The notes under the pieces were generated by a model. That model worked only from the letters and a program-made list of their open reading frames with translations. It did not search any database and was not told the DNA's origin. A stretch of DNA of 64,000 bases, from assembly GCA_022601635.1 (NCBI GenBank), contig JAJACG010000008.1, positions 1,721 to 65,720 on the forward strand. Direction: 5' to 3'. The stretch is from Chlamydiales bacterium. Lineage in GTDB: Bacteria > Chlamydiota > Chlamydiia > Chlamydiales > JAAKFR01. Positions 25,803-25,964 of the stretch are shown one piece after another; the first letter of the stretch is position 1; each line of letters begins with the position of its first letter. The position numbers were made by a program, and so were the translations under genes.

Positions 25803-25964
25803 GGAGATGCTGAATAAGTACCTTGCTAGAGATTTCGGCAAGATTTCTATCGAGGGAAAGTTCGGAGCCGAACGTCTAACCCCTTGTGGGTTAGTCGAGG
25901 CGAGAACGACACCTCGATAGAAAGATTGTCGGAAGATCTGGTGAGGGAGGTATTCAGTATCTCC
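25803..25964. repeat. Palindromic repeat element copy 3 (beta type)
   Basis: The TIRs are GGAGATGCTGAATAA...TATTCAGTATCTCC. The arms contain CGGCAAGATTTCTATCGAGG / CCTCGATAGAAAGATTGTCGG. The central sequence is TCTAACCCCTTGTGGGTTAGTC. It fills the gap between convergent genes. Confidence 0.92.

Follow-up and report, generated by a model that had tools for sequence, protein, structure and literature searches.

What kind of element recurs as a repeat of about 160 bp in a 64,000-nt stretch of Chlamydiales bacterium DNA (GenBank assembly GCA_022601635.1, contig JAJACG010000008.1, positions 1,721 to 65,720 of the forward strand; the whole stretch is called the window here), and why does it keep its shape? 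Chlamydial genomes are usually described as repeat-poor, and we know of no family of miniature inverted-repeat transposable elements (MITEs) that has been reported for Chlamydiota. An earlier note on this DNA had described the repeats as a MITE-like family, and we consider it probable that they are MITEs, that is, non-autonomous DNA transposons of ~161 bp that are mobilised in trans and that keep a hairpin on one strand. Every testable hallmark of a bacterial MITE was found in the element, and the MITE-like reading is supported by terminal inverted repeats (TIRs), by 4-bp duplications above shifted controls, by the lack of transposase coding and by the dispersal of the copies. What sets the family above routine MITEs is its unusually clean, strand-specific structural conservation. 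The host is an uncultured, probably sponge-associated chlamydia.

All nine intervals that had been listed as full copies proved to be full-length mutual alignments. A profile hidden Markov model (HMM) of the nine copies recovered each of them in the 64-kb window at E = 1e-38 to 1e-47 and matched only one half copy besides, while a covariance model (CM) found zero additional copies in the same window. The window holds nine full copies (161-165 nt) together with one half copy and two 15-nt solo ends, and their refined coordinates are collected in Table 1 (copies are named by their first nucleotide). The half copy and the solo ends had also been predicted and are indeed present, although the coordinates first given for the solo ends were 2 nt off. 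Because the element is not a true palindrome, the orientation of a copy can be distinguished, and both the profile HMM and the CM place copies 29268 and 43021 in reverse orientation and the remaining seven in forward orientation. The copies align with each other far above background, and they are not the ends of a complete insertion sequence (IS).

The high density is not peculiar to the window, since scaffold_285, which comes from the same sample and apparently from the same organism, carries 4 full copies and 1 fragment in 24 kb, including one head-to-tail pair. The window has 9 copies in 64 kb, and the density in both of these separate regions is thus ~1 copy per 6-7 kb, which makes the likeness to the density of Rickettsia RPE and Neisseria Correia repeats, as proposed earlier, a reasonable one. 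Outside this organism, a 24-base core pattern was run against a collection with one genome per species and without the window's own genome. All 6 matches fell in one metagenome-assembled genome (MAG), CALNYX010000017.1, "uncultured Chlamydiaceae bacterium LOGT_bin.0132" (the other MAG hereafter), and correspond to six full-length homologues. The arms of these six copies are unrelated in sequence to the arms in the window and have the same fold shape; the fetched loci of the other MAG share no orthologues with the window.

Every full copy is bounded by TIRs of 15-16 nt (family consensus GGAR...CTGAWTAA; element ends CTGAATAAC and GTTATTCAG). The 15-nt terminal repeat and the variant that had been pointed out are both well represented: GGAGATACTGAATAAC has 15 matches at <=3 mismatches against 0.53 expected, and GGAAGCCCTGATTAAC has 7 matches against 0.55 expected. 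Two matches of GGAGATACTGAATAAC, at 36480 and 44525, fall outside the elements and were taken as chance. With boundaries taken from the alignment, the 4-mers flanking 19 copies were identical in 10 and matched at three of four positions in 4 others, whereas the eight controls, in which the right flank was shifted by 1-8 nt, gave 0/19 each. The perfect duplications read TCAA (three times), TTTA (twice), TTAG, TTTG, CTAA, ATAA and GAAA; the element makes a 4-bp target-site duplication with a loose A/T-rich preference. From what is known of IS elements, variable duplications in combination with TIRs point to staggered double-strand cleavage by a DDE-type transposase.

No such enzyme is encoded by the element itself, as six-frame translation gave short element-derived frames only. 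The earlier note had stated that no transposase lies in or next to the copies, and this agrees with our finding that no transposase or integrase family was matched among the 40 larger open reading frames (ORFs) of the window (16-64 kb) or among 10 ORFs beside copies in the other MAG; no transposase was found in the ~190 kb examined in total. The elements are therefore non-autonomous, and a transposase encoded elsewhere in the genome would mobilise them in trans. This DDE transposase would make a staggered 4-bp cut and, judging from the cut and the termini, would most plausibly be of the IS5 type. IS5-family elements likewise make a 4-bp duplication and have termini that start with GGA and end with GAATAA. 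The IS5 end GGAAGGTGCGAATAAG of E. coli K-12 has 9-11 of 16 positions in common with four of the five element termini that were compared and 8/16 with the fifth, and 6 of the 8 positions conserved in the elements are among those in common.

A full copy is laid out as a 15-16-nt TIR at each end, two arms of ~55 nt and a core of ~50 nt that is almost invariant (AAATTCGGAG-N7/8-CTAACCNCTTGNNGGTTAG-N7-GAGAAYGA), and sequence conservation peaks at the element centre. The arms had been described as imperfect reverse complements of each other, which is accurate: they are ~75% complementary as plain DNA and ~95% paired when G·T is counted. The central hairpin, on the other hand, reads CTAACC-N7-GGTTAG, and its spacer is not the six nucleotides first reported. 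The window copies fall into three arm subfamilies in which left and right arms vary together, namely alpha (18446, 29268 and 61929), beta (33889 and 43021) and gamma (25803).

New copies tend to insert exactly at the edge of, or inside, older copies. Two tandem head-to-tail pairs were identified, and in each a single 4-bp spacer (CTAA at 61925-61928 in the window, TTTA in contig L012) doubles as the duplication of the second copy. In three further cases (18431, 42879 and L017), a solo end GGAAGYCCTGATTAA has a full copy immediately after it. The composite at 18431-18606 may have arisen in two steps, in which an element first inserted into the TTAA within the terminal repeat of an older copy and the two copies then recombined. 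Recombination is also evident in three of the nine window copies (19028, 47738 and 61765), which are chimeras and are all joined at the conserved core. In copies 19028 and 61765, the left arm is beta and the right arm is of the gamma type. In copy 47738, positions 47824-47903 are 93% complementary to 25801-25880, and as a result of this inverted gamma left arm its right arm has ATCT where other copies have AGAT. The chimeras fold poorly (-40 to -47 kcal/mol; CM 54-76 bits), and their flanks match at 2, 2 and 1 of 4 positions, i.e., without duplication, against 3-4 of 4 in the six non-chimeric window copies. Because they are joined at the core and lack duplications, ectopic recombination or inversion between copies is indicated rather than transposition of chimeras; the elements would thus recombine with each other at their common core. 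Chimera 61765 is reproduced in three independent assemblies (L020, L023 and L024), and an assembly artefact is therefore thought unlikely, although such a risk exists for repeats in metagenome assemblies.

The structure was analysed in an alignment of 15 non-chimeric copies, for which RNAalifold gave a single consensus hairpin of 61 pairs. Standard pairs account for 94.8% of the cells (78.4% in shuffles), and 38 of the 61 pairs show changes on both sides (27.3 in shuffles). The covariation score was 0.552 against 0.227 in shuffled alignments, with 0 of 500 shuffles reaching 0.552 and slid controls giving <=0.125. Among the non-Watson-Crick cells, 105 are G·T and 15 are A·C, and owing to this excess the same strand folds better in all 15 copies. 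The mean energies of the better and the opposite strand are -88.9 and -61.8 kcal/mol with RNA parameters and -40.4 and -30.6 kcal/mol with DNA parameters, and the preference holds in 15/15 copies under both. Likewise, the CM scores of the non-chimeric copies are 136-168 bits on the better-folding strand and 41-82 bits on the opposite strand. Since the orientation of the copies was set by sequence similarity and not by folding, this strand specificity is not circular. Recent changes within subfamilies lean the same way and comprise 17 from Watson-Crick to G·T, 6 from Watson-Crick to A·C, 8 from Watson-Crick to mismatch and three double changes.

Nearly all copies have two symmetric 2x2 internal loops, 11 nt apart, with AGAT on each arm (tandem G·A). 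The outer AGAT/AGAT loop is retained in every arm lineage (six lineages, two genomes), while the inner one is replaced in alpha and lost in two copies of the other MAG (L004 and L006). The apical loop is CTTG, of which C, T and T are invariant and G is found in 14/15 copies. A reverse-strand frame is open through the whole element in 11/15 copies and 4/6 arm lineages, with the core peptide SFSPSLTHKGLASGSEF; examples are 61855-62259 (-) and 47568-47915 (-) in the window and 10001-10255 in L012, and element plus duplication make 165 nt, or 55 codons. By a hand estimate, this frame has p = 0.01 approximately before correction for six frames and is marginal after it, and it is not taken as established.

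We argue that selection maintains the hairpin and that it is not incidental. One reason is that pairing has been preserved through double changes in six arm lineages from two genomes. Another is that the outer AGAT/AGAT loop is kept throughout and the inner one in most lineages, because re-creation of a palindrome would erase such loops, as happened in copy 47738. The third is that the G·T excess runs opposite to the mutation expected from the local GC skew: the elements' own skew is +0.1 to +0.3 (G>C) and most copies stand in a negative-skew context, and because these two are opposite, a replication-linked mutation bias predicts A·C and not G·T. It is possible, although we would put it somewhat below an even chance, that the hairpin matters as RNA, being co-transcribed with its neighbours as a long stem in the 3' untranslated region or between cistrons. 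The wobble-type asymmetry would then preserve the RNA fold and at the same time prevent a perfect, unstable DNA palindrome. Features typical of RNA can be seen in the G·U pairs, the tandem G·A loops and the CUUG-type loop, and long RNA-level stem-loops, ORF fusions and compensatory changes have been documented for bacterial MITEs of the bcr1 type (PMC3184786). A more far-reaching proposal, which we regard as doubtful, gives the single-stranded, strand-specific hairpin a function of its own and sees the transposon as its vehicle; the element would be either a mobile structured-RNA module or a MITE whose substrate is folded single-stranded DNA (ssDNA). In the RNA-module version, the invariant core, the CUUG-type loop and the tandem G·A loops would be recognition sites for a protein or an RNase, and the 3' ends of mRNAs would be rewired throughout the chlamydial genome.

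Most copies are located in short spacers at the 3' ends of genes; 19 of 19 are intergenic or abut stop codons, and no recognisable gene is interrupted. Copy 25803, for example, lies between convergent genes, with the stop of gene 23580-25787 at 15 nt from its left end and that of the DUF1207 gene (25976-27190) at 11 nt from its right end, and the stop codon of an MFS transporter gene is supplied by a solo element end (Table 1). The copies on scaffold_285 abut the stops of DUF748 and peptidase M3 genes, and in the other MAG one copy (L001 5640-5860) separates a permease gene from an ATPase gene, both of the oligopeptide-transporter (opp) type. The sequences that directly flank the L001 copy form an inverted repeat of their own (AACCATCTTA ... 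TAAGATGGTT), and the insertion seems to have occurred in the loop of an intercistronic hairpin that was already there. Placement at 3' ends would be the expected outcome of purifying selection acting on insertions in a compact genome and is no proof of function by itself. The ribosomal and RNA polymerase block at 1-18 kb is free of copies, as the earlier note had observed; its description of 18-62 kb as the accessory part was less apt, since a shikimate pathway operon and other housekeeping genes are located there.

Several points weigh against a MITE family with a selected hairpin. Among copies in co-directional contexts, ~6 have the better-folding strand in sense and ~4 in antisense, i.e., there is no orientation bias relative to transcription, and no conserved internal promoter or terminator T-run common to the subfamilies was seen on inspection by eye. 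The better-folding strand lies on the strand of negative GC skew (the C-rich strand) in 6/6 copies of the other MAG and 7/9 copies of the window, independent of gene orientation, as measured on stretches of 8-64 kb only and with the direction of replication inferred from this skew alone. Orientation that tracks GC skew may be a better fit to a DNA-level or replication-linked process. With regard to mobility, neither an autonomous partner element nor a transposase was found in the sequences examined, and for this reason mobilisation in trans is what we infer. No empty site was found in related assemblies when these were searched via the flanking genes; their contigs at element loci either carry the element or end within it. 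In addition, the likeness to the IS5 terminal repeat extends to 8-11 of 16 positions only, and although the CTAA and TTAG duplications fit the IS5 target, YTAR, the duplications TCAA, TTTG, TTTA, GAAA and ATAA do not if it is applied strictly. An IS5-like enzyme is therefore suggested as a lead only, and the source could also be another family that makes 4-bp duplications, for instance IS701 or IS1380.

The alternative that survives best, and which we still consider unlikely, is a MITE whose better-folding strand snaps back as ssDNA, for instance at a replication fork, so that the TIRs are juxtaposed and a transposase excises or copies the folded strand. The fold would then be preserved by selection for mobility and not for a host function. 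Such a substrate would account for a structural constraint that is inherited by whole subfamilies without any bias relative to transcription, and it agrees with the greater stability of the better strand under DNA parameters and with its preference for the C-rich strand; tandem G·A mismatches are stable in DNA too. However, variable 4-bp duplications together with TIRs are the signature of double-strand DDE transposition, whereas IS200/IS605, the known transposons that move as single strands, insert at a fixed target without duplicating it. Moreover, G-C pairs would stabilise a DNA hairpin better than the 5-10 G·T wobbles that each copy retains, and the argument from replication direction depends on the skew of the short stretches named above. 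If true, a MITE with TIRs and duplications that uses a folded ssDNA substrate would represent a mechanism not established for DDE elements.

It is less probable still that the family is a purely selfish double-stranded MITE with a functionless hairpin, in which the covariation came from arm-to-arm gene conversion or re-created palindromes and the G·T excess from a mutational strand bias. Palindromic arms can homogenise by intramolecular conversion, copy 47738 illustrates that left-left palindromic chimeras do arise, and single copies accumulate pair-breaking changes (the 8 to mismatch and 6 to A·C mentioned above). On the other hand, re-palindromisation gives AGAT/ATCT, as it did in 47738, and the outer AGAT/AGAT has been kept in all six lineages. 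The skew of the elements relative to their surroundings predicts A·C under a replication-linked bias, and the wobble positions are common within subfamilies, which indicates that they were inherited and are not independent mutations. Finally, that the repeats are attC-like sites of an integron-type array, or REPIN doublets mobilised by RAYT, is scarcely credible: the strand-specific single-strand fold with conserved unpaired bases and the cassette-type genes nearby (Cass2 at 17960-18421 and AadA-like at 31980-32762) are reminiscent of such systems, but the variable 4-bp duplications and the spacing of 0.4-14 kb, in both orientations and with whole operons between copies, already contradict this, no integrase or RAYT was detected among the larger window ORFs scanned, conservation is highest at the centre and not at R'/R''-type ends, and there is no GTAG/CGTC head as in REPs.

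Among known systems, the chlamydial element works most like bcr1 and the Correia elements, to which it is not homologous. The bcr1 elements of the Bacillus cereus group (~155 bp) are likewise non-autonomous and about as long, have a short direct duplication on their flanks and are scattered between genes, and compensatory changes preserve their predicted RNA structure as they do in the chlamydial element (PMC3184786). However, bcr1 makes a 5-bp duplication and has a two-stem "cruciform-like" fold, whereas the chlamydial element makes a 4-bp duplication and folds into one 61-bp hairpin whose core is conserved. The two are unrelated in sequence and belong to Firmicutes and Chlamydiota, respectively, and bcr1 is known to be transcribed. 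Correia (NEMIS) elements of Neisseria are also MITEs of ~100-155 bp with TIRs, dense in a genome of ~2 Mb, and they form long RNA hairpins, often by gene ends, with a functionally important central region (see also PMC3184786). Correia elements have a TA duplication and 26-bp repeats, in contrast to the 4-bp duplications of the chlamydial element, which often lack TA (TCAA, TTTG), and to its unrelated terminal repeat; membership in this family was rejected on account of the duplication length and the terminal repeat. Arm-wide covariation and a G·T strand bias, both found in the chlamydial element, are not part of the Correia definition.

RPE are likewise palindromic repeats of ~100-150 bp that have proliferated in an obligate intracellular bacterium, and one frame is open through the element, as is the reverse-strand frame in most chlamydial copies. 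RPE typically lie in-frame inside protein-coding genes, whereas none of the chlamydial copies interrupts a recognisable gene (0/19), and the chlamydial element differs further by its clear TIRs and 4-bp duplications and has no sequence similarity to RPE. Assignment to RPE was rejected because of the intergenic or stop-abutting position of all 19 copies and the lack of similarity to any curated RNA family. REP/REPIN-RAYT systems were rejected because the unit is 161 nt long and starts with GGAG, duplications are present, and no Y1 transposase was found among the larger window ORFs scanned. Integron attC sites were rejected on the basis of the element ends, which differ from RYYYAAC/GTTRRRY, the mixed orientation of the copies, the duplications, and the lack of an integrase among the window ORFs. 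Elements of the IS200/IS605 type (PATEs) were rejected because the chlamydial element has terminal repeats and its 4-bp duplications vary.

EF-Tu of the window is identical to genes in ENA ERZ23491157, ERZ23491219 and ERZ23492364, in GCA_022599435.1 and in the Logan assembly of SRR15145663. Element ORFs are annotated as "hypothetical protein" in "MAG: Chlamydiales bacterium" S4CHLAM81 and SP1CHLAM42. A search of the open-frame translation against a set of 5.8 billion proteins returned only 4 hypothetical proteins, all of them element translations from the same group of MAGs, and annotated "hypothetical proteins" of 80-84 amino acids (P0001, P0003 and P0004) are mere element translations. No copies were found in JGI metagenomes and viral contigs by pattern scans or in plasmids and phages by BLAST, and Rfam gave tRNAs alone at gathering thresholds and chance-level matches alone at E <= 10. 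In short-read assemblies that are apparently of the same organism (L014, L016, L017 and L020-L024), contigs end inside or at elements, from which it follows that the repeat family fragments these metagenome assemblies. L017 ~9980-10163 and L012 6088-6275 contain the same element with wholly different DNA on one side, where the neighbour gene encodes a TylF-type methyltransferase in one and an unannotated 252-aa protein in the other. Closely related strains may thus differ by a rearrangement that has its breakpoint at the element. Literature searches found no description of MITEs in chlamydiae, and repeats and transposases are not mentioned in a study of sponge-associated chlamydiae (PMC9666466), to which the tag "DHAR22-1" in the ENA scaffold names probably refers. 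As far as the searched literature and libraries show, the element family is undescribed.

Table 1. Full, partial and composite copies of the repeat in the 64-kb window. CM, covariance model; flanks, the 4-mers to the left and right; fold energies (RNA parameters) are given for the better and the opposite strand.
Feature	Coordinates	Strand	Remarks
Solo 15-nt terminal repeat GGAAGCCCTGATTAA	18431..18445	+	Abuts the next full copy; starts 10 nt past the stop of the Cass2/GyrI-like gene
Composite of solo end and full copy	18431-18606		TCAA flank on each side
Full copy, alpha	18446..18606	+	nhmmer E = 4e-45; starts 25 nt past the stop of the Cass2/GyrI-like gene (17960-18421); CM 158 bits forward, 63 reverse; fold -82.3 vs -58.2 kcal/mol
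Chimera, beta-type left arm and gamma'-like right arm	19028..19189	+	CM 75.5 bits; poor fold; flanks match 2/4, no duplication
Full copy, gamma	25803..25964	+	CM 162.7 bits; fold -94.2 vs -60.8 kcal/mol; flanks TTAA/ATAA; also found in an independent assembly (L018)
Full copy, alpha	29268..29428	-	CM 139 bits on the - strand; perfect TTAG/TTAG duplication; just past the tRNA-Met 3'-end repeat 29169-29213
Full copy, beta	33889..34049	+	Fold -92.9 vs -56.6 kcal/mol; perfect TTTG/TTTG duplication
Solo 15-nt terminal repeat GGAAGTCCTGATTAA	42879..42893	+	Contains the TGA that ends the MFS transporter gene 41618-42889
Half copy	42894..42942	+	Beta-type left arm alone, truncated ahead of the core; nhmmer E = 2e-9
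Full copy, beta	43021..43181	-	93% complementary to copy 33889; flanks TTAG/TTAT
Chimera, alpha left arm and inverted gamma left arm	47738..47901	+	CM 54.5 bits; flanks match 2/4; poor fold
Chimera, beta left arm and gamma' right arm	61765..61924	+	CM 75.6 bits; flanks match 1/4; first of a head-to-tail pair
Full copy, alpha	61929..62089	+	CM 164 bits; perfect CTAA/CTAA duplication; second of the tandem pair; left CTAA is the 4-bp spacer to copy 61765, right CTAA overlaps the stop of the convergent 62090-62860

Other features of these sequences were also observed. The 3' 45 nt of tRNA-Met (27260-27335) recur with 89% identity at 29169-29213, 1.9 kb downstream, and the segment just before this repeat (29042-29165, ~110-125 nt) recurs with 85% identity at 31772-31895, 2.7 kb further on. 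GC content falls to 0.36-0.39 across 28-32 kb, a region with an AadA-like nucleotidyltransferase (31980-32762) and a DUF6829 protein and with no integrase left. The region resembles what one or two elements, once integrated at tRNA-Met, would have left behind. The window also encodes WD40, F-box-like and HEAT repeat proteins (44582-45325, 56549-58159 and 19554-21254), and eukaryote-like repeat proteins of this kind are typical of environmental chlamydiae. In the other MAG, a DnaB helicase with an intein was identified (L005 2378-4204).

A MITE at ~1 copy per 6-7 kb would be a major force of rearrangement in this lineage, and 3 of the 9 window copies are already recombinant. The elements account in part for the fragmentation of this organism's public short-read assemblies, and several "hypothetical proteins" of public MAGs are translations of the element. 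Beyond this organism, the strong strand-specific covariation makes the family well suited as a natural system in which to ask what selects for MITE hairpins, with RNA, ssDNA and the avoidance of perfect palindromes as the candidate levels at which that selection may act.

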